From IMG/VR virus record IMGVR_UViG_3300026311_000090, positions 1 through 20,176 of that record: a DNA stretch of 20,176 nucleotides; one strand, written 5' to 3'. Below the pieces are notes generated by a model. It had not been told where the DNA came from. It ran no database searches and saw nothing but the letters and a program-made list of their open reading frames with translations. Positions 391 through 17,696 of the stretch are shown one piece after another (position 1 is the stretch's first letter; every line of letters starts with the position of its first letter). The stretch is from a virus. The position numbers and the translations under genes were made by a program.

Positions 391-447
391 TTATTTATCT
401 CCGCTTTACTGTTTTTTCTCCGTATTATCGTAAGAGATGCAAGTGAT

Positions 448-489
448 TTAGCTCTATACTTTAGGACACTTGTCCTAAATTTTAGGACA
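448..489 (-). promoter_or_regulatory. Copy 1 of a conserved ~42-bp upstream element (TTAGGACA/TGTCCTAA motifs beside a TATA-like AAGTATAG)
   Basis: 37/42 identical to 19166-19207. Contains the palindromes TTTAGGACA-CT-TGTCCTAAA (460-479) and TGTCCTAAA-T-TTTAGGACA (471-489). Lies ~60 nt upstream of the minus-strand ATG at 390. Confidence 0.65.
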
Positions 490-749
490 ATTGGATGCTT
501 GCTCATTATGTAGGCAATCGGTAATTTCCAAAATCAAGGTTATAGCTTATAAAAAATGGCGATTATGAAGGCAGATTTACTGCCGTTTAAGATAGCTTTC
601 GGCTATACCGGAAGAGATTGTTATTATGTATGAGTAGCGTGTCAAAGTGTGCGGAACATAATGCCCTTTGCATTCTATAGTTTGCCCGACTAAAAGTTGT
701 AGGTTATCCAAGTTGTAATATTCGAGGGTAATAGTATTCCAGTCGATTT

Positions 750-1073
750 TTAATCTATTGGACCGCTATGGGTTGGGTCGCTGATTGGATGGGCTGCCAT
801 TTCAGCTCTAACTTGAGTCATGTTACATGGAGTAGCTTTTGCTGGGTCAAACGGGGGTAATGTCGGTTCGGGTCCGATCTCGGCTAAATTGATCGATGGA
901 ATTTTTAACGGTTGTAGATAAGGATTTGAGTTAGCTAACGTTGAATTAGCGCTTAAAACATCAATTGATCCAACTGATGACGACGCATTGTATTGAATCG
1001 TTTGTGCGAGAACATTTGCAGAAAAATAGTAAATAGAAATTATAAGCACACCAATCACTAATTTTTTACTCAT
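750..1073 (-). CDS. Small secreted protein, possibly a frameshifted N-terminal half
   Basis: ATG 1073 gives MSKKLVIGVLIISIYYFSANVLAQ (signal peptide), followed by a Pro-rich region. An overlapping frame stays open from ~768 to 577. Confidence 0.6.
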   Translation of the reverse strand: MSKKLVIGVLIISIYYFSANVLAQTIQYNASSSVGSIDVLSANSTLANSNPYLQPLKIPSINLAEIGPEPTLPPFDPAKATPCNMTQVRAEMAAHPISDPTHSGPID

Positions 1074-1117
1074 TTCAACTTCACATCCGTGTGTTAGCAC
1101 ATAGCTTGAAAGATTAC

Positions 1118-1158
1118 TTAATGCTATACTTCAGAACACCCGTACTAAACTTAGGACA
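1118..1158 (-). promoter_or_regulatory. Copy 2 (degenerate) of the ~42-bp upstream element
   Basis: TTAATGCTATACTTCAGAACACCCGTACTAAACTTAGGACA aligns 32/42 (one gap) with 448-489. It sits upstream of the minus-strand gene at 1073, in the same orientation as the other copies. Confidence 0.5.
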
Positions 1159-1237
1159 GGATAGTGTTAGTTCTAAAAATATGTTCTAAAGCTTAGTCTT
1201 AAAAGAAGAGTATAATTAATAGTTACACGGTGAAAAA

Positions 1238-1924
1238 ATGAGTCAGAAAAGAGTCAAAAGTAGAAAGCTTGTTTATAGTTTACTTATACTCATAGCTTTC
1301 TGCGTCATCTTAACTTTTTCCTTATACTTAGCTTTCAGTCCTCTAGTTAATAGTCAAGAGTCAACCAGATTATCAACTGGCCCAATTTCTACAACTGATG
1401 AAGCAATTAAAATTGGGATGCCCATTGTTGACCAGTATATAGAAGAAAACAATCGAACAATAACAACTGTGGAAGCAACACTAAGGAATTCTACCCAACC
1501 TTATTGGTTTATTCAGGTTGAATTTGAAGGTATAGAAAGCAGAGGATACCACGACCAAAGTAGTGGTTACGAAGTATCTGTGTGGGCAGATAGCAGCGAA
1601 ATCTTACATCATGGTCCAATTTGGCATAATAGTCCAAGTGCGACTGACGAAAACACTAAAATTACTGTTGATCGAGCGATTGAGATTGCGATACCTATCG
1701 CTGAGGAATATGCTACAGAAAACAATCGAACAATAACAACCATGGTGGAAGCATCACTAACTAACCATACCGATTCCCGCCCTTTATGGCAGATAGATGT
1801 AAAATTTGAACCAGTAAAAAATGGGGACTACAGAGATGTGCAACATTGGATTGATGCATATACAGTTTCGATATGGGCAGACACGTGCGAAATAAGAAGC
1901 CACAGCGCGCGAGGTTGGTATTAG
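1238..1924 (+). CDS. Membrane-anchored protein with two tandem PepSY-like repeats
   Basis: N-terminal TM helix (LVYSLLILIAFCVILTFSLYLAF). Two ~90-aa repeats (xAIxIxxPI...ENNRTITT...W.I.V.FE...Y.VS.WAD..EI..H). The PepSY assignment is by motif resemblance only. Confidence 0.8.
   Translation: MSQKRVKSRKLVYSLLILIAFCVILTFSLYLAFSPLVNSQESTRLSTGPISTTDEAIKIGMPIVDQYIEENNRTITTVEATLRNSTQPYWFIQVEFEGIESRGYHDQSSGYEVSVWADSSEILHHGPIWHNSPSATDENTKITVDRAIEIAIPIAEEYATENNRTITTMVEASLTNHTDSRPLWQIDVKFEPVKNGDYRDVQHWIDAYTVSIWADTCEIRSHSARGWY
1444..1740 (+). repeat. Intragenic duplication with an identical 24-bp core
   Basis: AGAAAACAATCGAACAATAACAAC at 1444-1467 and 1717-1740, 273 nt (91 codons) apart. Confidence 0.9.
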
Positions 1925-2281
1925 TTACAGTCCAATCTCATAAAGCTCTATTCATTTTTTATACTTAAGAATCGCAGCATCATTCGAAGCTTTGCTTTAA
2001 CATATAAGAGGCTCACAAGGCAAGGGTGTGGCAGTTTTTACAACGAGTACTTACTACCAAACAATATACAAAACATAATTTTTGAACAAGTATGATTCAT
2101 AGCTTAAAGCGCATCTTAATACCCTCTTTTGCTTCTCGCAATTTCCGGGAATTTAGCTCTTCTTCATTTTTCAATCAATCTTAGAAGCATTTATGCTTTG
2201 CGAAGTTTTATGCAATTTGCCACAGACCCTTTAGTCCCGTAATATACGGTGGCGACATTAAAAGTTGAGGTCTTAGTTGGT

Positions 2282-2290
2282 AAAAAAAAA
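2282..2290 (-). terminator. Oligo-T archaeal terminator candidate
   Basis: T9 on the minus strand, ~35 nt after the TGA of the 2326-2552 fragment. Confidence 0.45.
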
Positions 2291-2325
2291 GTGAGTCGGG
2301 GTTAAAGTGTTTAAGCAGAGTCTCG

Positions 2326-2552
2326 TCAGCCACTCACATGGACAGCATCTACGCGCAGATTAGCGCTCCATCCTTGGTCATCATTAACGCAAACACCGAT
2401 GTATCTAAAGTTATTATACGAACCGCAGCTGATATCATATGGATTGCTATTAGTGATATATCCATTGAATGTTGTGTACCAGTTAGAGTAATCATTGGAT
2501 ACGTAAACAATTAGGTGACTTGAATATCCCGAGACTGTATGTGCGCGCGCGT
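2326..2552 (-). pseudogene. 3' remnant of a secreted/surface protein gene (5' end deleted)
   Basis: Protein-like open frame NARAHTVSGYSSHLIVYVSNDYSNWYTTFNGYITNSNPYDISCGSYNNFRYIGVCVNDDQGWSANLRVDAVHVSG* ending at TGA 2328-2326. There is no start codon, and the frame is bounded upstream by TAG 2571-2569 inside the portal sequence. Confidence 0.7.
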
Positions 2553-3369
2553 TAGCAGTGTTCCCGACCTAAAGATTCCCTACAAAGTCACAGGCTACCA
2601 ACTCAAAAGCACATACAGCGGCAATGCTGGAAGTGAGCTAAAACCCGAAGCGGTAGTTCACTGGCGCCTATGCAGTGATGTGCCTTCGGGTTTTGGAGTT
2701 GGACTCTTACAGGTGCTCTTGCACACGTTAACGCTTGATAGTGATAAGCGCCCTGCCTACTCTTGGATGAAGGCTAAAATTGAGCGCATCATGCCCCGAA
2801 TTTTCGAGAAGTATGCTGGACCTGATGTGTTAGCGTACTTGGATAAGGCTGATGCTGCAACCATAAAACAGTTCGAAGCCGCCATCAAAAACCGTCCCGA
2901 AGAGGGCGCTTGGCTATTCTACAACAAACCCTGCGAAGTCAAACCCGTAACCATAGACCCCAGAGCACAAGGCTTCGTTTACTACATCGACCACATCGTC
3001 AACCAGTTCTATCTTGGCTGCGAAACCCCATTGCCAAGACTTTTCAGCACACCTGGCTTCACCGAAGCATCGGCAAGGGCAGCTCTAGACTTGCAGGACA
3101 TGCTCATAAAACCCGTCCAACGCTATGTTAAGCGCCAAGTAGAACGAGAAATCTTCTTGCCCATTGTTGTTCAAGCTGGGTGTGATGCAGCGAAGGCTAA
3201 GGTTAGGTTGAATTTTGGCAGCCCCGAAACCCCAGAGTTAAACCCTGCTGACCTAATTAAAGCCGCTGAGCAGGGGCTAATTCGAGCCGAAGAATTCCGC
3301 AAGAACGCCGTCAAGTTTGGCTGGGAACTCTGGGATACAACAAACGCAACCAAGGAGACGCCAAAATGA
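2551..3369 (+). pseudogene. Portal protein, 5'-truncated
   Basis: Portal-like C-terminal motifs (HWRL..., FTEASARAA, IKPVQRYVKRQVEREIF, VRLNF, GLIRAEEFR). About 270 aa, short for a portal. The ORF-track ATG at 2539 lies in the antisense of the neighbouring gene remnant and has no RBS. Confidence 0.75.
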
Positions 3370-3719
3370 CAAGCGTAACCACCGAGGACATAAGAGATGT
3401 TTTGCACCTAAGCGACGCCGACATTGCAGACGCTAAGATTTTGAAGATGGTTAAGCGTGCCCAGGTCACTTTGACCTTAGAGCTTTCTCAATCCATAGAT
3501 GCATCAAACTGCACGGACGCCGAAAAAGAGGCGATAACGCTTCTTGCGGCAATTTATGCGCTTTGCTTTTTGACTGGCGGCTCAGCAGTCGGCTTAAACT
3601 TCAGCGTAGGCGACCTGAGCACCTCAGCATCTTCTTCCTTGCCAAGCTTAGACGTGCTACAATCTGAGTTTGGACGGATTCTTGACGGCCTAAAAACACC
3701 TTATGTTGGGAGCGCCTAA
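3366..3719 (+). CDS. Head-tail adaptor (SPP1 gp15/HK97 gp6-like)
   Basis: 117 aa, helical, begins VTTEDIRDVL, has a C-terminal SVGDLS strand, overlaps the portal stop (ATGA) and sits in the expected position. Confidence 0.65.
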   Translation: MTSVTTEDIRDVLHLSDADIADAKILKMVKRAQVTLTLELSQSIDASNCTDAEKEAITLLAAIYALCFLTGGSAVGLNFSVGDLSTSASSSLPSLDVLQSEFGRILDGLKTPYVGSA

Positions 3720-3721
3720 CA

Positions 3722-5113
3722 ATGGCAACCGTTCCAGAAACCTATTACCAGTTTGTCATGGACTACGCGCCCTATGTGTATGTGATAGCGCCCAATACCC
3801 CTGATCCAGCTTTTGGCAAAGGCGTTTTGGCGGCTAGCTTTGCCATAGATTTTCTGTGTGAAGCCTACTCTGCCCCGCAATTTGAGAACAGAAAAGCAGA
3901 CGTCTACAGCAAAATCATAAACCTAGCCGATTGGGTTCTAACTCAGCAATGCCTCGACCCAGCACGTAAAGCTTTTGGCGGCTTCAAAAGCGCAGAAGAA
4001 AGCACCTATTATTACAGTGTGGACGCTTGCAGAGTCATTCCGTCTCTTCTAAGAGCCTATGAACTCACAAACGATAGCCGATACTTAGAGGCTGCAAAGT
4101 TAGCCGCTGGAACTTTTCTCAAGACCATGCAGTACCAGCAGCCCTACGGCGGCTTCACCAGAGCTGTGACTATTGGCGATGCTTGGCTTCTGCAACTAGA
4201 CATTGAATGCCTCTATGGCCTAATCGGCTTGAACATGCTAGCCGAAAAGTACGATGCGGCAAATGCGCTACTCTACCGAGGCATAATGAACAAGGCAACC
4301 GGTTTTCTGAGGGCAGGCTTTGAGAACCTTTGGTTGGATTTTGACCCTGCCGATGGCAAGTGGCACCGAGTCGGTCTAACGGAAAATGAAGTGTACGATG
4401 ACCCCTTCGCCTATGCGCTAGTTGGCTTGTATGTGGTTGAAAGCTGGAGCGTTAGCTGCCAAAAAGTCTACAGCGCCCTAAACAACATCAGGGCAAGCGC
4501 AAAGTATCCAGCTTATGACCCTACAGTCTGCTGGGCAGGCTACATAGACGTCGTCAACAGATTCGTTGCATGCGACTACTACGATGCAGTCACAAGCGGA
4601 ATCCTATGGAAGATTCGCAAGAACCACGACCAACCCAGCTTAGAGCTGAGCATGAAAGTCATCGGCAAGCATGCTGAAGAGTTCATGTTTTGGGGTGCCA
4701 AGCATGCAGATTACAGTTTTGTTGAGAACAAAAAGGCAATGGTCACTGTTTGCTGGCTAGCCCAACTGTTCCTACACTACCAAGAGCCAACAACCCAGTT
4801 CACAAGAATTCTAAGAAGCAAAGGCGAAGCGGTTACGCTTTATCCAATCAGAGAAGCCGTTGCCACAGTGAGTTATGGTGAGTCGCTGGATTTGCTGGCT
4901 GTCGTTTCTCCAATCAAAGCTGAACAGGTAATGCTGGAAGCAGGCTACTACCTCAACGACTACTTAGCCTTCTACACGTTCCTCCCAGTGAGGGTTCACG
5001 ATAAAATCAGGCGTCAGGGCGAAGACTATGAAATCCAAACTGTAACTCCCTTCACTTTTACGAATCAGCGTTTGTACTTTAAAAGCGTGGCTAGGAGACT
5101 GATTTGCAGTTGA
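3722..5113 (+). CDS. Fusion of an (alpha/alpha)-barrel glycoside-hydrolase-like domain to a C-terminal head-closure (gp16-like) domain
   Basis: First ~355 aa show helical hairpin repeats (LADWVLTQQ...FGGF, SLLRAYELTNDSRYLEAAKLAA...FL). The last ~105 aa resemble head-closure proteins (EAVTLY...DKIRRQGEDYEIQTV...YFKSVARR). Follows the adaptor. Confidence 0.65.
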   Translation: MATVPETYYQFVMDYAPYVYVIAPNTPDPAFGKGVLAASFAIDFLCEAYSAPQFENRKADVYSKIINLADWVLTQQCLDPARKAFGGFKSAEESTYYYSVDACRVIPSLLRAYELTNDSRYLEAAKLAAGTFLKTMQYQQPYGGFTRAVTIGDAWLLQLDIECLYGLIGLNMLAEKYDAANALLYRGIMNKATGFLRAGFENLWLDFDPADGKWHRVGLTENEVYDDPFAYALVGLYVVESWSVSCQKVYSALNNIRASAKYPAYDPTVCWAGYIDVVNRFVACDYYDAVTSGILWKIRKNHDQPSLELSMKVIGKHAEEFMFWGAKHADYSFVENKKAMVTVCWLAQLFLHYQEPTTQFTRILRSKGEAVTLYPIREAVATVSYGESLDLLAVVSPIKAEQVMLEAGYYLNDYLAFYTFLPVRVHDKIRRQGEDYEIQTVTPFTFTNQRLYFKSVARRLICS

Positions 5114-6126
5114 GCGAAGCAGAAAACCCAGTCGTTACCATTTTGCGGCTTATCGAGTCTCGGCTACGAGTTGTCAAGGACGATGGCGGCTTAGCCCGTG
5201 TCCTTTGCGCTCAAGCCAACTATGACCGGGAACTGCTCAAAGACTACGACGCCCAAATCACCGTATCCAAAACCGCTGAACCATGCCAAGCACAGAAGCA
5301 CACCTTAGACGGAAAACTCAGACGCCGCATCTACTCCCTTCGAGCAACCATAACGACAGTAGACAAGCCCACTCCAAATTCAGATGTCGGCAGAGTCATG
5401 CGGGATAAAGTCCTTGAGCAGCTTCTTTTGACTATTCCCGAAAACCGCAACCTGCCCTACAGAACCATCTATAACTTCTACCCGCTAGATTCGACCTCTG
5501 CAACTCACAAGGCCTATGATGCCACAGGCACAGGGGAACTTGAGCCTTCAAACGTCTCTTGGGCAGAACTGCCAAACGTAGAGTATTCAGCGCTTTGGGG
5601 CAGTGACGATGTTAGGCATTCTAAAAGCTCAACTGGCAACGGCTTGTATGCGTTTATGCTTTTCCGTTTCAAAATAGGCGCTAAAGCTGGAGAAACCCGT
5701 AATGAACCAAGGAAACAGTGTCTTAAGCGTGTTTCATTGTCTTTTGAAGGCTTTGGGATTGCTCCGCAAGGGAACGGTGTAACCCTCAAAGTATGGGACA
5801 ACATCTCAGGCACTTGGAGCAATGCACAAAATGGCAGTTTAGGAACTGATGAAACGCTAACAATCGCTCTAACATCAAACCTTACCAACTACGTCAACGA
5901 AAGCGGCTTTCTCTATCTAATGGCACGGACCACCAACCCATCTGACGGAGTTTCCCCTGCCGTTTTGAACTGCGACTTTGTGCAGGCAACCGTTGACGTG
6001 CGAGGCGTCACTTTCTGCGATGTTCATAGTTACCGAGACGTCGATGTAGTGGACGTTAAGCCGTTTCTCTACAAGGAAGAAATCGTAATCGTGGCTTGGC
6101 TGTTCGAGTCAGTTGCCATTTCATAG
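5110..6126 (+). CDS. Tail terminator/completion protein with an inserted beta-sandwich domain
   Basis: TTG 5110 overlaps the previous stop (TTGA) and the gene lies directly before the tail tube. Terminator-like N-terminal (~115 aa) and C-terminal (~40 aa) parts flank a ~180-aa beta-rich insert. Confidence 0.6.
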   Translation: MSEAENPVVTILRLIESRLRVVKDDGGLARVLCAQANYDRELLKDYDAQITVSKTAEPCQAQKHTLDGKLRRRIYSLRATITTVDKPTPNSDVGRVMRDKVLEQLLLTIPENRNLPYRTIYNFYPLDSTSATHKAYDATGTGELEPSNVSWAELPNVEYSALWGSDDVRHSKSSTGNGLYAFMLFRFKIGAKAGETRNEPRKQCLKRVSLSFEGFGIAPQGNGVTLKVWDNISGTWSNAQNGSLGTDETLTIALTSNLTNYVNESGFLYLMARTTNPSDGVSPAVLNCDFVQATVDVRGVTFCDVHSYRDVDVVDVKPFLYKEEIVIVAWLFESVAIS

Positions 6127-6143
6127 TCACAGGTGGAAAAAAG

Positions 6144-7007
6144 ATGGTAGACACCTATCACAGCGACCAAGAAAAGTTCTATTACGTTCCAGAAGGCACC
6201 TTCGGCGTTGTTCCCGCCAACCCGCCGATGCTGGGGCACTCCTGCAGCAGCCTAGACCCAGACATAAACCCAACCAACATCAAAGTAGCAGGCACAGGCT
6301 CAGTTGACGTTGTTTCTCTGAAACGTGGCTTAAGACAGCCACTTCTAAAGCTCAAATATCCAATCCCCTCTGACGCACCCATTAACCTCTTGCAGTACGT
6401 CAAGCAAGAACTCAACGTTAGCCTTTCTTTGCAGGTGCTCTACTACAAAAACCAGTTCGCTTTTGCCACCGACATCATAAGCCTGCTATACAAGGGCGCA
6501 AGATTCGACAAAGCCACCTTAACATGCGGTATAGACAGTATTTTGGAGTGTGAAGCCGAGTTTCCAGCCCAAGATGTCGAAGTGGGCACGGCAAAGATTG
6601 CAGGCGCATCTTATACTGAATATGCTGGTGCTGTTTCAGGCAACGAGAGTTACGTCAAAATAGGAGGTGTAACTTGTGAGCGGGTTACTTCTTGGAAACT
6701 CCAAATTGACAACTCATGCAAAGCCGTCCCAGTCATAAGGTCAGTTAACGGTCATTTGGCAAAGTATCTTACGTGGGGTAAACGGCTGCTGACTGGGGAA
6801 CTCAATTTTGAGTTTGAAAGCAAACAAGAAACAGACGAAATTTTAGCCGATGTTGAGCAATCCAGCCTAGAATTCGGCTTAGGCAGCGTCAACAAAGTCA
6901 GCGTAGAACATACCAAATGGGACGATTTCTCGCTGAGCGGCAAGTCTGAGGACCTAATCTACGCTAAAGTTCCCTTCACGGCCAGAGGACCACTCACAAT
7001 CATATAG
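6144..7007 (+). CDS. Major tail tube protein
   Basis: ATG 6144 after AGGTGG (the ORF-track start at 6096 overlaps the previous gene). 287 aa, beta-rich, with tube-like motifs (VTSWKLQIDN, RLLTGELNFEF). Confidence 0.8.
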   Translation: MVDTYHSDQEKFYYVPEGTFGVVPANPPMLGHSCSSLDPDINPTNIKVAGTGSVDVVSLKRGLRQPLLKLKYPIPSDAPINLLQYVKQELNVSLSLQVLYYKNQFAFATDIISLLYKGARFDKATLTCGIDSILECEAEFPAQDVEVGTAKIAGASYTEYAGAVSGNESYVKIGGVTCERVTSWKLQIDNSCKAVPVIRSVNGHLAKYLTWGKRLLTGELNFEFESKQETDEILADVEQSSLEFGLGSVNKVSVEHTKWDDFSLSGKSEDLIYAKVPFTARGPLTII

Positions 7008-7020
7008 GAGTTATGAAAAA

Positions 7021-7188
7021 ATGAAGTCGAAATTTGAAACCAAGGTTTACATTCAAACTGTCGATTTATTGGCTCGTTTTTCAGAGCGCATAAGCAAGTT
7101 ACCCCTGCATTTGCAAGAGGATTTGCTAGCTGATTTGGAAACGGCACTGGAAAACCGCCTCAAAGTAATGGAGAGTCTGAAAGAGTGA
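7021..7188 (+). CDS. Small hypothetical viral protein (55 aa)
   Basis: Not in the ORF track. MKSKFETKVYIQTVDLLARFSERISKLPLHLQEDLLADLETALENRLKVMESLKE* fills the gap, follows GGAG, and its stop overlaps the next GTG (GTGA). Confidence 0.7.
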   Translation: MKSKFETKVYIQTVDLLARFSERISKLPLHLQEDLLADLETALENRLKVMESLKE

Positions 7189-7649
7189 AGCAAGAAGCAT
7201 TAGAACTTGACGACCGATTCGGCGAACAATACCAGGGCAAATACGTTTTCAAAGAAATCACTTGGGCTAAACGCAACCGCATTATCCAAAAGCACACCAA
7301 ATACAACAAGCTAACCGGGGATGTCGAAAGTAGCGACTTCATAACTATACAAGCAGAAACTATCCTTGCCAGCCTGCATGGTCAGCCTCAAAGCCACCCT
7401 ATAACCCTTGAGAAGCTTCTAAGCGAAGAAGACGGTGTATCCATTGAGCTTGGAGAACTGTTCTCTAAAGTAGTCAACAAACTAAATGGTATGTCACGGG
7501 AGGATTTGCGTTTTTTACTAGAGCAGTTAGACGAGGGAAACCTCACAGCTCTCTTGTCGAGTTTCGGCTATGCCAAACCTTCGGCTGGACACCAACCCAA
7601 CTTGCCAAGCAGCCAGCCAGAACAATCCAAGAATTCTGCCAAATCTTGA
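7185..7649 (+). CDS. Tail assembly chaperone (gpG-like)
   Basis: Lies between the tail tube and tape measure genes. Acidic, 154 aa, and contains in-phase slippery heptamers. Confidence 0.75.
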   Translation: MKQEALELDDRFGEQYQGKYVFKEITWAKRNRIIQKHTKYNKLTGDVESSDFITIQAETILASLHGQPQSHPITLEKLLSEEDGVSIELGELFSKVVNKLNGMSREDLRFLLEQLDEGNLTALLSSFGYAKPSAGHQPNLPSSQPEQSKNSAKS

Positions 7650-7714
7650 ATGTGATGGACGATATGGCTGAGGAAGAAAAGAAAAAGACGGAGAGTGAAG
7701 CAAGACGGCGGTAG
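7511..7714 (+). other. -1 programmed frameshift site(s) and gpT-like extension (G-T fusion of ~176 aa)
   Basis: T_TTT_TTA (7511-7517) and G_GGA_AAC (7535-7541) are both X_XXY_YYZ in the zero frame. The -1 frame is open to TAG 7712-7714: ...TRAVRRGKPHSSLVEFRLCQTFGWTPTQLAKQPARTIQEFCQILNVMDDMAEEEKKKTESEARRR*. Confidence 0.8.
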
Positions 7715-8076
7715 AAGTTACCTGTGACATCGATGGCGTAGAAGAGTTCAAGGCAGCTATGCAACGGTTAGATAGTGGCATGCAGCGGCAAGTTCATCGT
7801 CAACTGGTTAGCTGGGCTGCTGACGTCAAAGCTTTGGCTAGAAAGCTTGTTCCAATCAGGACGGGTTACTTGCAAAGCACTATCTATGCTAAAATTAGTG
7901 AGTGGGTGGCTGAAATCGGTGCTGACGCTACCTACGCCTTGTTTGTAGAGCTTGGCACCAAGTACATGCAAGCCCAACCTTACCTTTACCCAGCTATCCA
8001 CGAATACCTACCCCAACTCGAATCCATCATCGTCTCAGCCATTGAGCAAGCCAAAGTGGAGGCTGGACTGCCCTGA
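7705..8076 (+). CDS. HK97 gp10-like tail/neck protein
   Basis: Family motifs ARKLVPIRTGYLQSTI, YALFVELGT and MQAQPYLYPAI. The frame extends 18 codons above ATG 7759 to ACG 7705 (AVEVTCDIDGVEEFKAAM), behind GGAGAGTGA. Confidence 0.85.
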   Translation, partial: TAVEVTCDIDGVEEFKAAMQRLDSGMQRQVHRQLVSWAADVKALARKLVPIRTGYLQSTIYAKISEWVAEIGADATYALFVELGTKYMQAQPYLYPAIHEYLPQLESIIVSAIEQAKVEAGLP

Positions 8077-8657
8077 GTTTTCGCGAGATAGCAATAACGG
8101 TTCGGGCGGTGAATCGGGCTTCAAACGAGTTTAGCCGAATACAAACCGACGCTGAAGCACTAGCGACTAGGGTTAAGAGTTTAGGCGCTGCCATGGCTGG
8201 AATTGGCGCTGCAGGCACCGCCATCGGATATGTTGCTAACCAATTCGGTTTGCTCAATGATGCAGAAACTAAGGTTTTCACTTCTGCTATGATGGTTGTT
8301 TCTGTCATGGGCATGTTCCTGCGCACAAGCGCTGGACTTGCCGTAGCTCAGAAAGTGTATTCTGCGGCTTGTTGGGTCGCCACTGTGGCACAGAACGCAC
8401 TAAACATCAGCTACGGAACGTTTCTAGCTCTAACGGGTGTGGGGATTGCGGTTATTGTTGCGGCTGCCGCAGCCATGGCCTATTTTGCGAGCAGCATGAA
8501 CAACGCTACCGCCAGTGTGGAGAACTTCAACAGTGCCACAGCTGAGACGCCTACGCATACTCGCAGTATCCAAAGAGCGGGGGAATCAGCGGTCACTTCT
8601 AGGTCACAAAGCGGTAGCTCATCTGATGCTTCTTTCTATCGGAGGGGTGTTGAATAG
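8073..8657 (+). CDS. Very short tape-measure-like protein (194 aa)
   Basis: The frame extends above GTG 8109 to CTG 8073 (SFREIAITVRAVNRAS, a TMP-like N-terminus), overlapping the previous stop, with GGAGG at 8058-8062. Ala/Gly-rich with hydrophobic helices; precedes the baseplate gene. Confidence 0.7.
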   Translation: MSFREIAITVRAVNRASNEFSRIQTDAEALATRVKSLGAAMAGIGAAGTAIGYVANQFGLLNDAETKVFTSAMMVVSVMGMFLRTSAGLAVAQKVYSAACWVATVAQNALNISYGTFLALTGVGIAVIVAAAAAMAYFASSMNNATASVENFNSATAETPTHTRSIQRAGESAVTSRSQSGSSSDASFYRRGVE

Positions 8658-10252
8658 TGAGTGTTAATCCGCCAGCTTTGACGATTGCTTTGGGTTCTGT
8701 CGGCATTCCCCAAGTTGACGTCATCGACGGCCTGGTACACCTTGGCGCCACCAAAGAGGTCAGCAGTTGGGAACTTAGGCTTCAGAACTGGAACGCCAAA
8801 TACAGCCCAAACGGCACATACCCGCTAAACGCGGGGCAGGACGGCTACATCTGCATTGGCAGAGGCGCCAACGTTCCACAACTAATCACCACCCGCACCG
8901 AGAGCATAAAGTACCAGTCAAACACCACAGAAAACTACGTTATAGTCGCTGGCCGCTGCTGGGGAGAAAAACTCTTCCGCCAAACCGTAACCAAAGACTA
9001 CTCAGGCTACAGAGGCGAAGCTATAGCCAAAGACCTCTTGGATTACTATTCAGGATTAAGCCATGTACGTGGTAGCACAGAGCTAGTTGAGGACACAGAC
9101 ACAACCTTTACCGATCTAAAAGTGCAGGATACCCAAGTTTGGGATATGCTCCAAAAAATCGCCTTTGAAAGCGACAAGAACGGTGCCATTGGCTATGACT
9201 TTCGGACTGCACCGGATGGGAAATTCGAGTTTTTCCCAAGAAGCACCAAAACAAGCTCCGTCAGCCTCACAGACAAGATAGAGGCTTACGAGTACTGGAA
9301 AGAAATCATCGCCATCAGAAATAAAATTACCATCTACGGGGCTGCCGATAAAAGCTCTCCCTTGGATAAAGCCGAGACTGTTGAAAGCCTCTCGCCTGCA
9401 AGCGGTGCGTGGACCTTGTACGCTGGCATTTCCATGACGCTTGATGCAACCAAAACATATGGGGAAGCCGCAGCAAGCATAAAGCTTGTTAGTGGTTCAA
9501 ACTACTACGGCGGACTCTACTTAACTTTCAACACACCGCAAAACCTCAACACATACCCCAAACTCTACTTAGCCCTCCTACGCGATACACATATCCGAGC
9601 AGACGGTTTTAGCGTTGAACTCTTCGATACCTCATATAGAGCCGCTGGGCAGGTCCTTAGCAACGTTAACGACAACGACCCGTCAGCATTTGCCCTCGAC
9701 GTCGGCGGAGCCTTTGCAGCCAACTGGCATCCACAGGCAGGCTTTGACTGGACTCAGGTCAGCGTTGTTCGAATTGACGGTTGGTTAGTTGACACCCTTA
9801 CTTCTGGGACATTTTGGGTTATGCAGTTATTCTTTGGCGGCGCACGCTACAGCAGCATGCAGCAGAATACGGCTAGCCAAGCTGCCTATGGACTCAGAGA
9901 GTTTGTGGATACTGACGAGGAGCTTTGGAGCGACACCGAATGCTTGCTTAGGGCTAGGGCTATTCTCGCCAATATGAAAGACCCTTCCGAATACATCACT
10001 CTAAGGAGCACAGTCATCGATTATGGAAATACTCCCCTTTTCGCCGCTGACATGATTCCAGTTACACTGCCAAACGAGAACGTCAACGGCAACTTCCGCA
10101 TTTTAAGCGCTGAATACCATGTCAAAGCCAAAACAGACGATTTAGAGATAACTTTGGAGCTTGGGCGCGAGAAATCACTGCTGGCGGATTACGTGTACGC
10201 TTTGCGGTCCAAAGTGGACCACATTAACAGATACAAGGTTGCGAGGTTATAA
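8657..10252 (+). CDS. Baseplate hub/Tal-like tail tip protein with a CBM-like insertion
   Basis: Hub-like motifs (GEAIAKDLL, WDMLQKIA...YDFR...DGKFEFFPR, IRNKITIYG, FRILSAEY). Central ~165-aa beta-sandwich insert (FDWTQVSVVRI...GTFWVMQLFFG). Confidence 0.7.
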   Translation: MSVNPPALTIALGSVGIPQVDVIDGLVHLGATKEVSSWELRLQNWNAKYSPNGTYPLNAGQDGYICIGRGANVPQLITTRTESIKYQSNTTENYVIVAGRCWGEKLFRQTVTKDYSGYRGEAIAKDLLDYYSGLSHVRGSTELVEDTDTTFTDLKVQDTQVWDMLQKIAFESDKNGAIGYDFRTAPDGKFEFFPRSTKTSSVSLTDKIEAYEYWKEIIAIRNKITIYGAADKSSPLDKAETVESLSPASGAWTLYAGISMTLDATKTYGEAAASIKLVSGSNYYGGLYLTFNTPQNLNTYPKLYLALLRDTHIRADGFSVELFDTSYRAAGQVLSNVNDNDPSAFALDVGGAFAANWHPQAGFDWTQVSVVRIDGWLVDTLTSGTFWVMQLFFGGARYSSMQQNTASQAAYGLREFVDTDEELWSDTECLLRARAILANMKDPSEYITLRSTVIDYGNTPLFAADMIPVTLPNENVNGNFRILSAEYHVKAKTDDLEITLELGREKSLLADYVYALRSKVDHINRYKVARL

Positions 10253-10255
10253 CAA

Positions 10256-10669
10256 ATGAAAACAAGTTTGCGAAAGACAATTGAGGGTTTGAATCCAGGC
10301 GATTTAGTTTGTTGCAGTTGGTGCGACGCTTCGGTTGGCAAAAGCAGCGGTTCAGGCACGGCCATAGATGTTCCTGTGAAGAGTTGGGGCATATATGTTG
10401 GCCTCATCGGCGACAAAGTTAAGCACATAGTGCTAGCTCAGAACAGTTTCCGCTACTCCGACGGCCTATTTGATTTGGATTATACCGCGGTTCCGTTAAG
10501 CTGGACTGTTGACGTGTCGGTGCTGATTAAAGAGCATGTTCCAAAAGAGTTGGCGGGAAAGCTGGTTAATAGTTTTATGATGGGTGGACATCGGTCGCTT
10601 AATCGTCCACGTACATTTCAGCGTAGAATTTTTCAGCAGAGGTTGAGCATAGATGGCAGACCCTATTAA
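10256..10669 (+). CDS. Hypothetical viral protein
   Basis: 137 aa, in operon context, and overlaps the next gene. Confidence 0.7.
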   Translation: MKTSLRKTIEGLNPGDLVCCSWCDASVGKSSGSGTAIDVPVKSWGIYVGLIGDKVKHIVLAQNSFRYSDGLFDLDYTAVPLSWTVDVSVLIKEHVPKELAGKLVNSFMMGGHRSLNRPRTFQRRIFQQRLSIDGRPY

Positions 10670-10898
10670 GCGTGCTCTAACAAGAAGGCGCAGGATTCCA
10701 GGTCGCCCTGTTATAATCGAGGAGCCTAACGAGAAGCTCGTGCTTGGCGTTAAATTCGGCATAGGCATGACCGTTTGCCTATCACTTTTGGAGATTGCAC
10801 ACATGGCTTTCATGGGAACATGGAACAGCGAAATTTTCGCTGCAATCACTGGCTTGAGTGGAACTGTTATGGGCGTTTTTGTGGGGCAGAAATCATGA
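10653..10898 (+). CDS. Holin-like small membrane protein
   Basis: 81 aa with a basic N-terminus and two predicted TM helices (FGIGMTVCLSLLEIAHMAF; IFAAITGLSGTVMGVFVG), located after the tail genes. Confidence 0.55.
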   Translation: MADPIKRALTRRRRIPGRPVIIEEPNEKLVLGVKFGIGMTVCLSLLEIAHMAFMGTWNSEIFAAITGLSGTVMGVFVGQKS

Positions 10899-11239
10899 CA
10901 CGAAGAAGAAAAGATGAATTGGTGGAAAATAAAAAAAATATTTTTTTTCCACACATCGTTTATCGTTCCTTTAGCCGAATCACCAGAAAACTCACTGCCA
11001 AAGACTTTGTTGACGCTGACTCCTTCAAAGCAAGGGATGATATCATGCGCATTTTTGCAGCGGAATGCTTTGAGTTAGCTCAGAAATTCGCTGAAGAAAA
11101 AAACGAGAAACTTGCCCTGCAATACACAAAGTTGTCAGCAAAGATGCTGGGTCTTTCGTTGCGTCCCAAGAAGCTCAGTGATTTGGATGAGATTAAGCGG
11201 GTTTTAGCAGAGTTGAAGGCTCAGGAAAAGATCGAGTAA
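10895..11239 (+). CDS. Putative terminase small subunit
   Basis: ATG 10895 overlaps the previous stop (ATGA). 114 aa, basic and helical, ending immediately before terL. Assignment is by position only. Confidence 0.5.
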   Translation: MTRRRKDELVENKKNIFFPHIVYRSFSRITRKLTAKDFVDADSFKARDDIMRIFAAECFELAQKFAEEKNEKLALQYTKLSAKMLGLSLRPKKLSDLDEIKRVLAELKAQEKIE

Positions 11240-12829
11240 ATGTCCTACCACACTGTGCCCAGTAGCATTTCTGGCATTTGGCGTGAAATTGAGAAAATAC
11301 AGGCGGTTAAGGTTTCAGAAGAGGATAACCGCAGGGTTCGTTTTTGCGCTAAAGTTTTAGCTGAGTTGAGCGGCCAGAAGGTTGACGTGGTTTTTCGTAG
11401 GATTAAACCGCGAAGTGAAGAGGACCTTTGCAGCATTAGAGTGCTGTTTGCTAAATGCCAAGGGTACAGTTTGGAAGAGTTAGGGGAAGACCCTGTTTTT
11501 TCTGAGGTGTTTATGAATTTTCACCCCAAGAGCTACCAGCTAAAATTTCTTGTCAGCCAAGCGAGACAGGAAACCATGCTCTGGACCCGTCAGGGTGGAA
11601 AGACAACCTCTGAGGGCGTGAAGTTTTTTAAGCGCCGAGTTCGACGCCCAGGTACTCAAGCAACCGTTACCGCGCCAGGTTTTAGGCAGTCCAAACTTGT
11701 CATTGAAAAATTGTCTGATACTATTTTCAATATGGACCCTGTGGCGCGGAAAGCTTGGGTTGAGAAAGTCCTAAGAACCGCAATTCGTTTGCATAACCGT
11801 TCCAAGTTTAAGGCGTTTCCATTTAGCCTTGAAAAGCTGAGGGGCGAAACCAGTGACGATGTGATTGTCGCGGAAGCGGCTTTCATTAAAGAACTTGAAG
11901 AGTTGGTGCAGGGCACTTTGATGCCTCAGATGGCTACCCGCTACGATAAGGGTTCAATTATTTGTCTTGACAGCACGCCGTGGGATAAGAAGTGCTATTA
12001 TTACAAAACGCTTAATGTTGCTGAGGTTTCCCAGTTCTGGACGCCCTTCATTGCCGACTATCACGAAGCGGTTAGGGAGGGCTTGATTTCTCAAGAGTTT
12101 ATCGATTTGCAGCGGCGGCAACTTGACCCAGACCGTTTTAGCCGCGAATACGAGCTACAATTCACCGAAGACCATGGACGCTGGCTTAGCCAAGAACTAA
12201 TCACCGCCTGCGTAGACCACAGCATTGTAGAGCCATGGCATTTTGAAGATTCCTTTGAGGACTTAGATTTCTGCGCTGGATTAGATGTTGGCCAGCAAAA
12301 CGATAACGCAGCCCTCAGTATAATCGAGTTGCAGGGTGAAGCTCGGTTTCTGCGTTATAGTTACCTATTTCCGCTCGGTACTCCGTATGATGTGCTCACG
12401 GCTCATCTCAAGGTGATAACTGACCGCTGGCACATCAGAAGAACGCTAGTCGATGCCACGAATGAACGGGCGCTAGCCGAAACCATGACAGCGCAAATTG
12501 ACGGCGTCGAAGGTATAGCGTTCACTCAACCATGGAAACAAAAAGCCGCTGGTTTTCTTAAGCAACTGATGAGCAAAAAACAGTTTAGGTACTATTTTGA
12601 CCCTGAAGTCGTCGCTGGCTTAGCTATCGAACAGTTCGAGGTTTTAGCAGGCAAACCAAAAGCTGAGGGCGAGGGCGAAGTAAGCAAGGAGCAGGGTGAA
12701 CTTGAAGGGAACATTCGGTTCTATCATGCGCCTGGGACTCATGATGACCGTTTCTGGTCAATTTGCCTAGCCGTTGCAGCATCCATAGAGGTTGAGCCTG
12801 AACCGTTCTTTGCAGTTATTCCACGGTGA
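11240..12829 (+). CDS. terL: Terminase large subunit
   Basis: Walker A WTRQGGKTT, KLRGET before a Walker B-like DVIVAEAAF, coupling motif STP, and RNase H-like nuclease acidic motifs AGLDVG, LVDAT and HDDRFWSICLA. Confidence 0.92.
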   Translation: MSYHTVPSSISGIWREIEKIQAVKVSEEDNRRVRFCAKVLAELSGQKVDVVFRRIKPRSEEDLCSIRVLFAKCQGYSLEELGEDPVFSEVFMNFHPKSYQLKFLVSQARQETMLWTRQGGKTTSEGVKFFKRRVRRPGTQATVTAPGFRQSKLVIEKLSDTIFNMDPVARKAWVEKVLRTAIRLHNRSKFKAFPFSLEKLRGETSDDVIVAEAAFIKELEELVQGTLMPQMATRYDKGSIICLDSTPWDKKCYYYKTLNVAEVSQFWTPFIADYHEAVREGLISQEFIDLQRRQLDPDRFSREYELQFTEDHGRWLSQELITACVDHSIVEPWHFEDSFEDLDFCAGLDVGQQNDNAALSIIELQGEARFLRYSYLFPLGTPYDVLTAHLKVITDRWHIRRTLVDATNERALAETMTAQIDGVEGIAFTQPWKQKAAGFLKQLMSKKQFRYYFDPEVVAGLAIEQFEVLAGKPKAEGEGEVSKEQGELEGNIRFYHAPGTHDDRFWSICLAVAASIEVEPEPFFAVIPR

Positions 12830-12834
12830 CTAAA

Positions 12835-14283
12835 ATGACAAGACGACGAAGTGAACTTTTCCGTATAACCAAATTTCGAAGAGTCTAGAATCGAGAAGAA
12901 GGCAAATTCTCCTTCAACATAAGCTATGAAACCCACACAAAGGTCACTCCCAGAAGTCTTGTTGTGGCTGAAGCCTTCGGTTTGGGTATTGATGATGCTC
13001 AGAGGTTCAAGGTTTTAGACGCTGAACTCAAGATTGGGCCTCAAGACATCGTCTACATTACGGGTGATAGTGGCAGCGGCAAAAGTGTGTTGCTACGCGC
13101 AATCAGGGCTGATTTGGGAGAAGAAGCTATTGATTTATCTGAGGTTGCAGTGGATCCGGACAAGCCTTTGATTGAAACAGTAGGCGCAACAGTTGAAGAA
13201 GGCTTAGAGTTGCTAAGCAAAGTGGGGTTAAACGATGCTTTTCTCTTTCTACGCACATACAACCAGCTTAGTGATGGACAGAAGTACCGTTACCGAATCG
13301 CCAAACTCGTCGAAAGCGGCAAGCAGTGGTGGCTGATGGATGAATTCGCCGCCTGCTTAGATCGGGACACAGCCAAAATCATCGCCTACAACCTACAAAA
13401 GCTAGCTCGACAACAAGGTAAAGCAGTCATAGCAGCCACCACCCATAGCGACCTCCAAGAGGACTTGAAGCCCACCGTTTTGGTGCGTAAGCGGTTTGGC
13501 GAAGAAATCCAAATCAATTACTACCCAAACGAGTCAGCTACTGAATGCAGTCTTGTTAAAGAGATGAAAGTTGAAGAGGGGAATAAAGAGGATTGGCGTA
13601 GACTTAGCGGTTTCCATTATCGAGGACACAATGTTGCAGTTCCCCGCAAGATTTTCCGCTTAGTAAGAAAAGACGAACTCTGCGGCGTCATAGTGTACAG
13701 TTATCCACCGCCAGCCTGCTATGGTAGACGAATAGTGCTTCCAAGAATGACTATTCAGGAACTAAACAAAAAATTAAGCATCATTAACCGAGTGGTTATT
13801 CATCCAAAATATCGGACAATAGGTTTAGGTGCCAAACTTATTCGTGAGACACTACCCATAGCTGGCACTCCTTACGTTGAGATGATTGCTGTTATGGCTA
13901 AGTATAGTCCGTTTGCAGAAAAGGCAGGCATGCAAAGAATAGCTCAGCAGCAAGCCGTTAAGAGCATTTTAGCTGTTTCTAAAGTGCTCTTAGCGTTGGG
14001 TTTTGACTTGCAATTTTTGGGCAGCGAACGCTATGTTAGAGCAAAGCTTGAAAGTTTAAATCCTGTGCAAATAGGACCGCTAAAGGAGGCTTTCATAAAA
14101 AGTAAGCATACAAGGTTTAAGAAAGAGTTTGCAGTTAGTCGCCATCAACCTTTTGGGAAAACTGATGACTACATAAACAGCATACAAAATGCAGATAATA
14201 TAAAAATAGGGAAGCTTATCAAGCTGGCTGGAATGCTCTTGCAGACTAAAGTTTACTTGTTCTGGGAAAAAGCTGTAAAATAA
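12835..14283 (+). CDS. ABC-type ATPase / GNAT acetyltransferase fusion, interrupted by an in-frame TAG at codon 18
   Basis: Walker A GDSGSGKS, signature LSDGQKYR, Walker B WLMDEF, H-loop ATTH; GNAT motif A RVVIHPKYRTIGLGAKLI. ATG 12835 is in frame with GTG 12964, with a single TAG (12886-12888) between them. Confidence 0.85.
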
Positions 14284-14363
14284 TAGAAGAACTTGGGCAG
14301 TTATAATCGAGTTAACGCTTTAATATTACTATCTTTCAATTACAGTTGGCTTTGAGGTTGTAG

Positions 14364-14613
14364 ATGGTGGAGCGGCAGGAAGCTGTTTTGGTTCTAAGAG
14401 AACTTCTTCGGGTTTGCCCTGATTTGATGAATCAAGCAGTCTCTTTAGACACAAGCTTTTTAGCCTCCGAGCAAATCGGGGGGGGGAACGAAAATTTCGC
14501 TTAGAGGCATCCTAAATGACAACTCTCGCCAATGTTTACAGCCCATACTTGAAAAGCACAAGTTGACCCTAAAAGAAACAAACGATACCATAACCATTTA
14601 TCGTTCGCAATAA
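14364..14613 (+). pseudogene. Small protein gene (~82 aa) frameshifted at a G9 tract
   Basis: GAGGT RBS and ATG 14364. As written the frame stops at TAG 14502-14504. With G8 instead of G9 (14478-14486) it reads on: ...IGGGTKISLRGILNDNSRQCLQPILEKHKLTLKETNDTITIYRSQ*. Confidence 0.65.
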
Positions 14614-14686
14614 GCTTGTTAAAGAGCCAGTAATTAAGTTGATAAAGTGCCTGAATTAGCAAATGTTTACTTGATAGCCCATGTTT

Positions 14687-15025
14687 TTAATTACTCTGTA
14701 GTTGATTCGTTTCAGGTTTTACAAGTCCTCGTTTGAGAGCTAGGAAAACAAAGAATTGCGAAAAAGCAGCCACTGTTGCAGATATTAGGATATGTACTGT
14801 GTTAATATCGCCTGCTAGAGCGGTTCCTCCTAAAGTACTGAAAAAAGTGATTCCGCTAGTAATGATTGCATCTATGAGCGCGTTTCCCCAATCAAATTTT
14901 TGTTCTATCGCAGAGGTCTTATTGTTTATACAGCAAACTCGGAACCCTCTGACTGTTAACGTTGGGTTTATGTTTTTTAAGCAATTTATGAGTCTGCCTC
15001 TAATGGTTAAGGTAAGTTTTACCAA
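14687..15025 (-). CDS. Small membrane protein (holin-like topology; start uncertain)
   Basis: C-terminal two-thirds are hydrophobic (FDWGNALIDAIITSGITFFSTLGG...ISATVAAFSQFFVFLALKRG). The true start may be downstream of 15025. Confidence 0.6.
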   Translation of the reverse strand: MVKLTLTIRGRLINCLKNINPTLTVRGFRVCCINNKTSAIEQKFDWGNALIDAIITSGITFFSTLGGTALAGDINTVHILISATVAAFSQFFVFLALKRGLVKPETNQLQSN

Positions 15026-15117
15026 AAGTTATTTCGCCTCCTCAATGTTTGGATAACTGCTTTGTGCCAAAAGAAATTATCACATTCAGTTACCTAGTAA
15101 CCTTATGGTTATTAGCT

Positions 15118-15137
15118 AGACGTGATGTTTCTGAAAC
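15118..15137. promoter_or_regulatory. Operator-like element matching the central palindrome of the mirror module
   Basis: AGACGTGATGTTTCTGAAAC is 18/20 identical to 17705-17724. Confidence 0.55.
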
Positions 15138-15189
15138 TACACGGCTAACTTAAGAACGGTTCTCAATCTCTAGGATATCACCGTTAATA

Positions 15190-15206
15190 GAAGACAAGTT
15201 GTCTTC
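15190..15206. promoter_or_regulatory. Perfect palindrome at the 5' end of the wHTH gene
   Basis: GAAGACAA-G-TTGTCTTC overlaps TTG 15199, or lies just upstream of the alternative TTG 15223. Confidence 0.45.
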
Positions 15207-15501
15207 GAAGCGTGTGTTTATTTTGGATCTTAGAGACTTGTTTGCTTCAAAGGGCAGACAAAAAATCATAGAAGTGCTGTCATTGCATAGAGAGTTAAAT
15301 GTTATGCAACTGGTAAGCCGGGTTGGTGGTAGATATCCAGAGGTGAACAGAAACCTTGCTATTTTAGAGGGTGAGGGTATTATAATAAGTGAGTATCGAA
15401 AGCAGGTCAAACGTGCAAAGGTTAGAATAATTAAACTAATCAAGGAAAATCCTCGAACTCAAAAGTTAATTAGAGCATTAAGAGACCTGAAGGAAGATTA
15501 G
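15199..15501 (+). CDS. ArsR-like winged-helix transcription regulator (paralog 1)
   Basis: ASKGRQKIIEVLS...VNRNLAILEGEGII wHTH pattern. Alignment with paralog 2 favours TTG 15223 as the start. Confidence 0.85.
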   Translation: MSSKRVFILDLRDLFASKGRQKIIEVLSLHRELNVMQLVSRVGGRYPEVNRNLAILEGEGIIISEYRKQVKRAKVRIIKLIKENPRTQKLIRALRDLKED

Positions 15502-15627
15502 AACACCAGCAGTTGCTCGTCGATCTCGAAGTTATCATTACCGAAAAGTATTCCGTCAATAAGTAGATTAAGGTAGACCATAACTGACCTATTCACAAAA
15601 AAGAGGTTTAAGGAAGAATTTAGGTAC

Positions 15628-17627: not shown

Positions 17628-17696
17628 ATTTTTTCACCTCCTATTGATCTTATAGTAAAGAAACCTTAGACGAAATTAACAAAGGCGCTTTCGTGC

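Follow-up and report, generated by a model that had tools for sequence, protein, structure and literature searches.

A head-less viral contig as a probable deletion derivative of a BATPV1-like temperate virus of Bathyarchaeia

The 20,176-nt stretch of DNA analysed here (the window) constitutes an entire IMG/VR record, classed as linear with a CheckV completeness of 55%, and is very probably a defective deletion derivative of a temperate HK97-type tailed virus of Bathyarchaeia; the virus would belong to the family of Bathyarchaeia tailed provirus 1 (BATPV1, JAAKEZ010000002_pro, 33,358 bp; Microbiol Spectr 2024, PMC11705971). The window is proposed to be wholly viral DNA from a member of this family, in which a single illegitimate join, with a 7-nt filler, has fused the cargo end (nt 2544) with the interior of the portal gene (nt 2552). 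Such a join would account for the loss of attP, the integrase, the left arm, the head genes and portal codons 1 to ~145. A search of all six frames found no integrase or capsid gene in the window, as the initial annotation had stated, and no other head gene either; the missing capsid gene is attributed to the deletion. The molecule is predicted to form no capsids and no full portal and to be incapable of integration by itself, and is therefore considered a defective derivative. The earlier suggestion of simply a decayed provirus comes close to this reading; however, the genes are intact except for the portal, and the flanks are viral cargo rather than host DNA.

The structural block and its truncated portal gene

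The structural block spans 11.7 kb of one strand, with 15 same-strand ORFs across 2539-14283 (Table 1), and its GC content is ~49% versus ~38% on either side; the step is sharp at both edges, and the left edge (nt 2552) lies inside the portal gene, exactly at the GC shift. The genes of the compact neck-tail cluster that had been described, with the terminase after the tail and holin-like genes, are thus present; the compactness itself is due to truncation inside the portal gene. The Caudoviricetes hallmarks are all found in the window as homologues of TerL, the portal fold and the tail tube. Searches of the window for a separate Dit gene found none, in agreement with the earlier description, and no sheath gene was found either, the virus being read as long-tailed; nor does the window contain a replication gene, a PF00589 match, a tRNA gene, an att site or a housekeeping gene. 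All retained genes can be aligned over their full length to those of relatives, the cut portal being the sole exception, and their dN/dS against the related locus L010 is 0.04-0.18, within the range below 1 that had been anticipated.

The portal of the window lacks ~145 N-terminal residues of full-length homologues (400-420 aa); its homology begins at nt 2551 by tblastn, and the apparent ATG start of the ORF (2539) is fortuitous. Its identity is drawn from family members, 19 of 80 of which match Portal_Mu and 16 of 80 Phage_portal in Pfam, and from an AlphaFold2 model (pLDDT 88) with the portal of HFTV1 as its best Foldseek match (E 2.6e-9).

Table 1. Features of the window. Positions are those of the whole 20,176-nt stretch; c43 is the provirus on JBLNCY010000043.1.
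Feature	Position	Strand	Basis or remark
Left low-GC cargo	1..2544		Secreted-protein genes; DNA homology to c43
Secreted-protein gene, left cargo	1-390	-	
Secreted-protein gene, left cargo	750-1100	-	
Secreted-protein gene, left cargo	1238-1924	+	
3' gene remnant, left cargo	2349-2510	-	Intact c43 version is 141 aa
Junction filler, GCGCGCG	2545..2551		Between cut cargo gene and cut portal gene
Portal, 5'-truncated	2539..3369	+	Residues ~146-417 of ~410-420 aa kept
Head-tail adaptor, gp6-like	3366..3719	+	PF05135 in 2/9 aligned positional homologues, best E 2.8e-7
Conserved 463-aa protein	3722..5113	+	Weak matches to C5-epim_C and GH88; syntenic in relatives
Conserved 340-aa protein, AF_1625_C family	5104..6126	+	Syntenic in relatives
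Tail tube	6096..7007	+	PF18906 E 2.6e-13; phrog_290 E 2.1e-15
Tail assembly chaperone position, 55-aa and 154-aa ORFs	7021..7649	+	Position; conservation in relatives
Tail completion/Neck1, HK97 gp10-like	7759..8076	+	PF04883 E 3.6e-4; phrog_5 E 1.9e-14
Tape-measure-like protein, short, 182 aa	8109..8657	+	Weak family matches; hydrophobic core
Tail/baseplate hub-like, YQBQ-like	8657..10252	+	PF24032 E 1.2e-6; phrog_400 tail protein
137-aa protein and 81-aa small membrane protein	10256..10898	+	Conserved in relatives
TerS candidate	10775..11239	+	Co-occurrence with TerL type
TerL	11240..12829	+	phrog_2 E 3.5e-23
Soluble ABC-type ATPase and GNAT fusion	12964..14283	+	PF00005; phrog_293, phrog_886, phrog_11143
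Right low-GC cargo	14284..20176		Membrane protein, two wHTH regulators, two beta-helix paralogues, secreted proteins

The window's own copy of the adaptor has no direct Pfam match, and neither of the two ORFs at the chaperone position has a significant family match. The N-terminal part of the 463-aa protein resembles an alpha/alpha barrel and its nearest protein-atlas clusters are viral; those nearest to the 340-aa protein are 100% PF27237 and mostly viral. Homology of the tail tube ORF begins at about residue 15. The tape-measure-like ORF had been given as 194 aa, which holds only if an earlier start is used in place of the GTG; its sequence matches are weak (PF24164, E 0.015; PHROG tape-measure families, E 0.06), but a short ORF is kept at this position in all relatives (homologues ~170-225 aa), and its position, hydrophobic core and conservation are compatible with a tape measure. 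A hydrophobicity scan of the 81-aa ORF (10653-10898) reveals hydrophobic helices, making it holin-like. The ORF preceding TerL has no family match; it occurs only where relatives share the TerL type of the window and is absent alongside the ~30%-identical TerL, which suggests a candidate small terminase subunit, with its true start probably at an internal ATG near residue 42. TerL itself is 69-91% identical to copies in 13 related loci, and the ABC-ATPase/GNAT gene adjoins TerL in nearly every family member.

The family of relatives, BATPV1 and c43

The relatives were examined at 22 TerL-related loci, namely eight from IMG/VR, five from archaeal MAGs and nine of ten regions around TerL paralogues from four Bathyarchaeia MAGs; 19 of the 22 share at least two further genes with the window, in the same order and at 40-92% aa identity, so that the gene order proposed for a search of archaeal MAGs does recur there as well as in IMG/VR. 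In fuller relatives the portal is immediately preceded by a cement-like gene and an HK97 capsid gene (PF05065, phrog_267); in at least eight elements an integrase (PF00589) lies 5-20 kb downstream of ABC/GNAT in the same orientation, and homologous integrases (31-96% identity) occupy the corresponding end in five family members. Other genes of the fuller relatives are ParB-like, HerA-like and UvrD/PD-(D/E)XK; beyond these, the family showed no clear replication module. The att repeats lie at varied tRNA genes, tRNA-Pro(GGG) in BATPV1 and tRNA-Leu(TAG) in two others. Intact members begin with attL and a short left arm, followed by a 453-aa protein, the cement-like protein, the HK97 capsid, portal, adaptor and two conserved proteins; continue with the tube, chaperone, gp10-like protein, short tape measure, hub, small membrane protein, TerS-TerL and ABC-ATPase/GNAT; and end with 5-20 kb of lower-GC variable cargo, a tyrosine integrase and attR in a tRNA gene.

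The distribution of the family is patchy, with members in 43 of 301 sampled Bathyarchaeia species, and a genome carries several diverged, often broken copies (one to five or more), with up to 11 TerL homologues in one MAG; portal homologues form more than 1000 clusters at 90% identity. Several relatives are classed as proviruses in IMG/VR, and one contig looks circularly permuted. The MAGs with relatives are labelled Bathyarchaeia, Bathyarchaeota or Thermoproteota, and in one case Methanocella; these labels support the Bathyarchaeia-like host that had been suggested for the window, which itself has no host DNA.

BATPV1 was identified with the locus G002:C37:240214-273571 (L024), whose 33,358 bp equal the published size and which is bounded by 22-bp direct repeats that overlap tRNA-Pro(GGG) and occur only twice in the region. 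Thirteen genes of the window's block have counterparts in this provirus, arranged alike; identity is 67-85% for 12 of these, namely the portal, adaptor, 463-aa and 340-aa proteins, tube, chaperone, gp10-like protein, tape measure, hub, two small proteins and ABC/GNAT. The host class is probably also the same, and lower-GC cargo again follows ABC/GNAT, inside the att borders. BATPV1 is complete, with a cement-like gene, HK97 capsid, full portal, tyrosine integrase and 22-bp att repeats, whereas the window is devoid of head genes and integrase; further differences are the TerL of BATPV1, which is of another type and ~30% identical to that of the window, the absence of the TerS candidate from BATPV1, and its different cargo genes.

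The closest relative over the right half of the window is c43, from a MAG labelled Methanocella sp., with a TerL 91% identical to that of the window and the same cargo genes. Window positions 11036-19208 are collinear with c43 6-8087 at 84% DNA identity, and 1115-2544 match c43 8043-9468 at 96%; in c43 these two segments follow one another in this order and are succeeded by the integrase, tRNA-Leu(TAG) and host genes, the homology ending ~50 bp short of the integrase gene. A 42-bp repeat is found as one copy in c43, while the window has ~2 kb of extra genes between copies. The c43 contig ends just before TerL, leaving its head genes out of view.

The junction, the flanks and the form of the molecule

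At the junction, the match to c43 runs up to 2544 and that to intact portal genes begins at 2552, with 7 intervening nt that resemble neither. The cargo gene broken off here is complete in c43 (141 aa), where the cargo runs on through it; the window instead continues into the middle of the portal. A chimera formed during assembly or amplification, with a complete BATPV1-like virus misjoined at 2544/2552 and no natural head-less molecule, is unlikely, though it is the strongest of the alternatives. It would agree with a metagenomic contig whose junction falls at a low-complexity GC run and is unique to one record, no other public record having been found with it; however, the partners share no k-mer and the filler appears non-templated, a join that a graph-based assembler would not make and that misassembly through overlaps would not produce. 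Furthermore, both partners come from one virus with the geometry of a single deletion in a circle, and comparable deletion remnants are known in host chromosomes, for example at L013, where cement residues 1-80 are joined to TerL from residue 72. The chimera is accordingly the less likely of the two readings, and the junction is taken to reflect a biological event rather than an artefact.

The low-GC flanks of the window are viral cargo and not host DNA, because they are contiguous in c43 and run straight into its integrase; that the cargo lies inside the provirus is proven by att sites for BATPV1 only, the attL of c43 lying off its contig. Beta-helix homologues are likewise present in the cargo of family member L035. 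In three independent metagenome contigs, homologues of the genes at the two ends of the window are same-strand neighbours ~1.8 kb apart, and there is no overlap between the two contig ends. Since cargo flanks the block on both sides and the genes at the contig ends are neighbours elsewhere, the deletion derivative would most simply be circular or tandem: either a ~22-kb circle, one deletion away from the viral genome in its circular form, or a single repeat unit from two tandemly integrated copies (a double lysogen) with an internal deletion.

A provirus decayed within a host chromosome, the 38%-GC flanks being host DNA and the 11.7-kb island the remains of the virus, is highly improbable. The sharp GC step at both edges would fit this account, as would flank genes for surface proteins and regulators and the recurrence of one flank gene, as homologues, on numerous metagenome contigs of ~40% GC; against it, the flanks are contiguous in c43 between ABC/GNAT and a viral integrase with tRNA-Leu, BATPV1 has similar lower-GC cargo within its att borders, and att sites, tRNA genes and housekeeping genes are all absent from the window. 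A deletion in an integrated linear copy, moreover, cannot bring the cargo end to a position left of the portal. There is a similarly slim chance that the head-less ~22-kb molecule is a helper-dependent episome, satellite-like or defective-interfering; such an episome would retain terminase, pac site, tail genes and cargo of its own, with packaging into capsids provided by a co-resident full-length BATPV1-like virus. Helpers of this sort are plentiful, because the hosts often carry several copies.

Gene transfer agents and other viruses of Bathyarchaeia

The gene transfer agent (GTA) of Rhodobacter capsulatus, RcGTA, has no integrase and is inherited vertically as one cluster, in which capsid and portal genes are included; it packages host DNA. 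It resembles the window in its HK97-type head-tail module, short tape measure and portal fold, the GTA portal structures 6tba and 6toa being among the Foldseek matches to the window portal; it differs in that the intact relatives of the window bear integrases, are flanked by att sites, and are multi-copy and patchy, and in that the window has no capsid gene. The initial annotation had suggested a GTA-like or domesticated cluster of Bathyarchaeia on account of the compact one-strand layout, the short tape measure and the lack of integrase, replication and capsid genes, to which the low dN/dS could be added; this reading, taken as a particle-forming cluster, is the least credible of all, as the compactness is that of truncation within the portal gene, low dN/dS is equally expected of a virus, no particle can form when the capsid protein is missing and the portal incomplete, and the family consists of diverged, often broken copies with variable cargo in a minority of sampled species. 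Homologues free of integration genes at one syntenic locus had been expected of a GTA; instead, fuller homologues carry an integrase and sit at different tRNA genes, although an intact closed circular virome contig, which would also have spoken against a GTA, was not found for the family. The outcome removes a tempting but wrong lead toward an archaeal GTA.

The family is an ordinary temperate virus lineage and not a new kind of system; as a provirus family of Bathyarchaeia it is very widespread and has been little studied. Two families of Bathyarchaeia tailed viruses, Fuxiviridae and Kunpengviridae, have been proposed (ISME Commun 2024, PMC10848311). In Fuxivirus (~32 kb) the portal (gene 28) comes immediately after the terminase (gene 27), and the capsid gene follows (PMC10848311); the family of the window is set apart from it, by description only, through a capsid gene before the portal and TerL after the tail genes. 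Both of these traits merit description, together with the tape measure of just ~180-220 aa, the ABC-ATPase/GNAT gene beside TerL, a TerS-TerL cassette exchangeable between members, and cargo that is lower in GC and rich in surface-protein genes.

Gene content and the truncated portal

The window most probably represents a defective derivative, devoid of head genes and integrase, of a temperate tailed virus of Bathyarchaeia related to BATPV1, a published tailed provirus of that class (PMC11705971). The IMG/VR record of 20,176 bp constitutes the entire window and is classed as linear, with a CheckV completeness estimate of 55%. Between 2539 and 14283 lie 15 plus-strand ORFs with hardly any spacing, and the GC content of this block is ~49% vs ~38% on either side. 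Family scans and all-frame searches agree with the gene content described in the initial annotation; the integrase, capsid and other head genes of the family are absent from all frames of the window, and scanning the window for repeats and tRNA genes revealed no att-like pair bracketing the block. The 340-aa product of 5104-6126, encoded after the neck genes and before the tube gene, groups with mostly viral protein clusters characterized by PF27237 (AF_1625_C), a domain whose name comes from a protein of Archaeoglobus.

Principal features of the structural block
Feature	Position	Strand	Basis
Portal fragment, 276 aa, first ORF of the block	2539-3369	+	C-terminal two thirds of a 400-420-aa protein
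Tail tube protein	6096-7007	+	PF18906, E 2.6e-13; phrog_290
HK97 gp10/Neck1 tail-completion protein	7759-8076	+	phrog_5, E 1.9e-14
Tape-measure-like protein, 182 aa	8109-8657	+	Weak tape-measure similarity; hydrophobic core and position fit
YQBQ-like hub	8657-10252	+	Family scans
Small membrane protein, 81-aa ORF	10653-10898	+
Large terminase (TerL)	11240-12829	+	phrog_2, E 3.5e-23
ABC-type ATPase fused to GNAT domain	12964-14283	+	Family scans

The first ORF of the block is a portal gene that lacks its 5' end, as established by Pfam matches within its family, by a fold match and by the length of its relatives. The ORF itself has no direct Pfam match; however, a profile search places it in a family of 605 clusters at 50% identity, of which 80 diverse members include 19 matching Portal_Mu and 16 matching Phage_portal. 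An AlphaFold2 model built on the 80-sequence alignment reached a pLDDT of 88, superseding an unusable model from six sequences (pLDDT 43), and its top Foldseek matches are portals, the best being that of Haloferax tailed virus 1 (E 2.6e-9); PDB searches with the portal profile and with the adaptor profile returned nothing significant. Full-length counterparts are 400-420 aa in every relative and in more than 100 database homologues, while homology in the window begins at nt 2551-2552, corresponding to residue ~146, and the 5' loss coincides exactly with the GC step. The small size of the cluster is due to this cut. The assignment of the portal function to the 453-aa protein encoded upstream in relatives, with the 420-aa protein serving as something else, is excluded by the same Pfam and fold matches. 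At 90% identity the portal family comprises more than 1000 clusters, indicative of a very abundant, multi-copy provirus family.

Relatives, cargo and the complete virus

Searches with TerL yielded eight relative loci in IMG/VR and five in archaeal MAGs; of these five MAGs, four are labeled Bathyarchaeia, Bathyarchaeota or uncultured archaeon, and the fifth Methanocella. The comparison also covered the surroundings of 10 more TerL paralogues from four Bathyarchaeia MAGs. The gene order of the window is retained in most loci at 40-92% amino-acid identity. From tape measures of 180-220 aa, a short tail ~25-35 nm in length is predicted for the family. In longer contigs the portal is directly preceded by the 453-aa protein, a cement-like protein (PF09956) and an HK97 capsid protein (PF05065, phrog_267), and the ABC/GNAT gene is followed by 5-20 kb of variable, lower-GC genes, among them those for ASCH, ParB-HTH, HerA-like ATPase, UvrD/PD-(D/E)XK and PIN proteins; a tyrosine integrase follows this cargo in the same orientation. 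The integrases of five family members are mutually homologous (31-96% identity). In contig G002:C37 the element is bordered by a perfect 22-bp direct repeat that overlaps the tRNA-Pro(GGG) 3' end and has only two copies in this region; the length of the element from attL to the tRNA end, 33,358 bp, is the exact published size of BATPV1 (JAAKEZ010000002_pro) from the same assembly. The integrase adjoins tRNA-Leu(TAG) in two other members, and three related IMG/VR records are classed as proviruses with completeness of 42-87%.

The low-GC flanks form one continuous viral cargo region that separates the structural module from the integrase, because they are contiguous in JBLNCY010000043.1 (c43), the closest relative over the right half, and lead there to an integrase and tRNA-Leu. 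This contig aligns with window 11036-19208 at 84% DNA identity and then immediately with 1115-2544 at 96%, the two segments meeting through a single copy of a 42-bp repeat; homology stops at c43 position 9468, within an intact 141-aa minus-strand gene, and is followed by the integrase (9519-10568), tRNA-Leu and host genes. That the flanks are host DNA is rejected on this collinearity and on the downstream integrase and tRNA. A further member of the family likewise has beta-helix genes in its cargo, similar to those of the window. The 42-bp repeat occurs three times in the window (448-489, 1118-1159 and 19166-19207), upstream of three cargo genes; since c43 has a lone copy at the precise point at which ~2 kb of additional genes are present in the window, cargo genes may be gained or lost through this repeat.

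Two adjacent integrases lie at neighboring tRNA genes in c43 (9519-12096): a PF00589 integrase beside tRNA-Leu(TAG) and an SSV-type integrase (PF16795) starting within tRNA-Thr(GGT), which suggests that a second element integrated adjacent to the provirus. MAGs labeled Methanocella sp. are the source of this contig and of one portal homologue (P0045), and all other hosts in the family are Bathyarchaeia or Thermoproteota; the label could reflect a mis-binned contig or a broader host range. The family has two TerL types that share only ~30% identity although the rest of their modules is syntenic and 50-85% identical (window 10775-12829; loci L022 and L024-L029), and the ORF immediately preceding TerL (window 10775-11239) is found only alongside the TerL type of the window; these observations together suggest that family members exchange a TerS-TerL cassette.

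The junction and the likely circular or tandem topology

The left-hand homology runs up to ...TATGTGC at 2544, and homology to the portal starts with TTAGCAGTG at 2552; the 7 nt between them, GCGCGCG, match neither partner. Such filler is typical of illegitimate joining. Exact searches of metagenome and viral contig collections gave no match to the junction, which is unique among public records. All retained genes align full-length with relatives, and dN/dS against one relative locus (L010) is 0.04-0.18, portal fragment included; therefore either the portal truncation is recent relative to gene divergence or the contig is chimeric. That the window is a chimeric contig of a BATPV1-like virus is considered the less likely of these; judged from its sequence, the filler would not come from a k-mer graph.

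In the window the cargo ends to the left of the portal fragment and starts to the right of the ABC/GNAT gene. A linear integrated copy that suffered a deletion cannot yield this order; a single deletion in a circular form would do so, as would one spanning two copies in tandem. Viral contigs contained no relative of either end gene. A metagenome scan supports such an origin: in three independent contigs, homologues of the two genes truncated at the window ends lie ~1.8 kb apart on one strand, so the window looks like a ~22-kb circle or repeat unit broken during assembly.

The 28.7-kb contig of relative G008 has an ORF spanning the join of its end to its start, with consistent gene order and no sequence overlap between the ends, which does no more than suggest a closed circle. 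A cement-like gene stands at its end (L018) and a capsid gene at its start (L021), as in a circularly permuted genome, and in this member the capsid gene is preceded rather than followed by the portal homologue (32% identity).

Broken copies are found elsewhere in the family. One full-length syntenic copy (L030, G003:C6:379800-399799), on a 984-kb contig, has frameshifts in many genes and is a decaying provirus; its genes for tube, chaperone, hub, TerL and ABC/GNAT are frameshifted or split. A chromosomal locus on G002:C20 (L013, 9365-12854) has residues 1-80 of the cement-like protein fused to TerL from residue 72, with one TAA stop inside the joined remnant and an intact ABC/GNAT gene after it; the family therefore includes a second internal deletion of independent origin.

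Distribution and the gene transfer agent question

Among 301 sampled Bathyarchaeia species, 43 have the portal at E <= 1e-30, a patchy distribution with one to five copies per genome, several of them broken or cut. Four Bathyarchaeia MAGs (G002-G005) carry 6-11 TerL homologues each, and three distinct portal clusters are represented on a single 2.68-Mb contig. That the element is an episome dependent on a helper, packaged by full-length relatives in the same host, is considered very improbable.

The proposal that the cluster resembles a gene transfer agent (GTA) of an archaeon does not hold: relatives use different tRNA attachment sites and have homologous integrases, outcomes that had been named as refuting it; they also carry variable cargo, and the patchy, multi-copy distribution is likewise unlike that of a GTA. 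The low dN/dS that had been anticipated was observed; however, these values fit a virus or a GTA alike and have no power to separate the two. The window resembles GTAs in its short tape measure and compact layout only, both of which are traits of the temperate virus family; it is thus placed as a further member of the already known BATPV1-like viruses rather than as an archaeal GTA.
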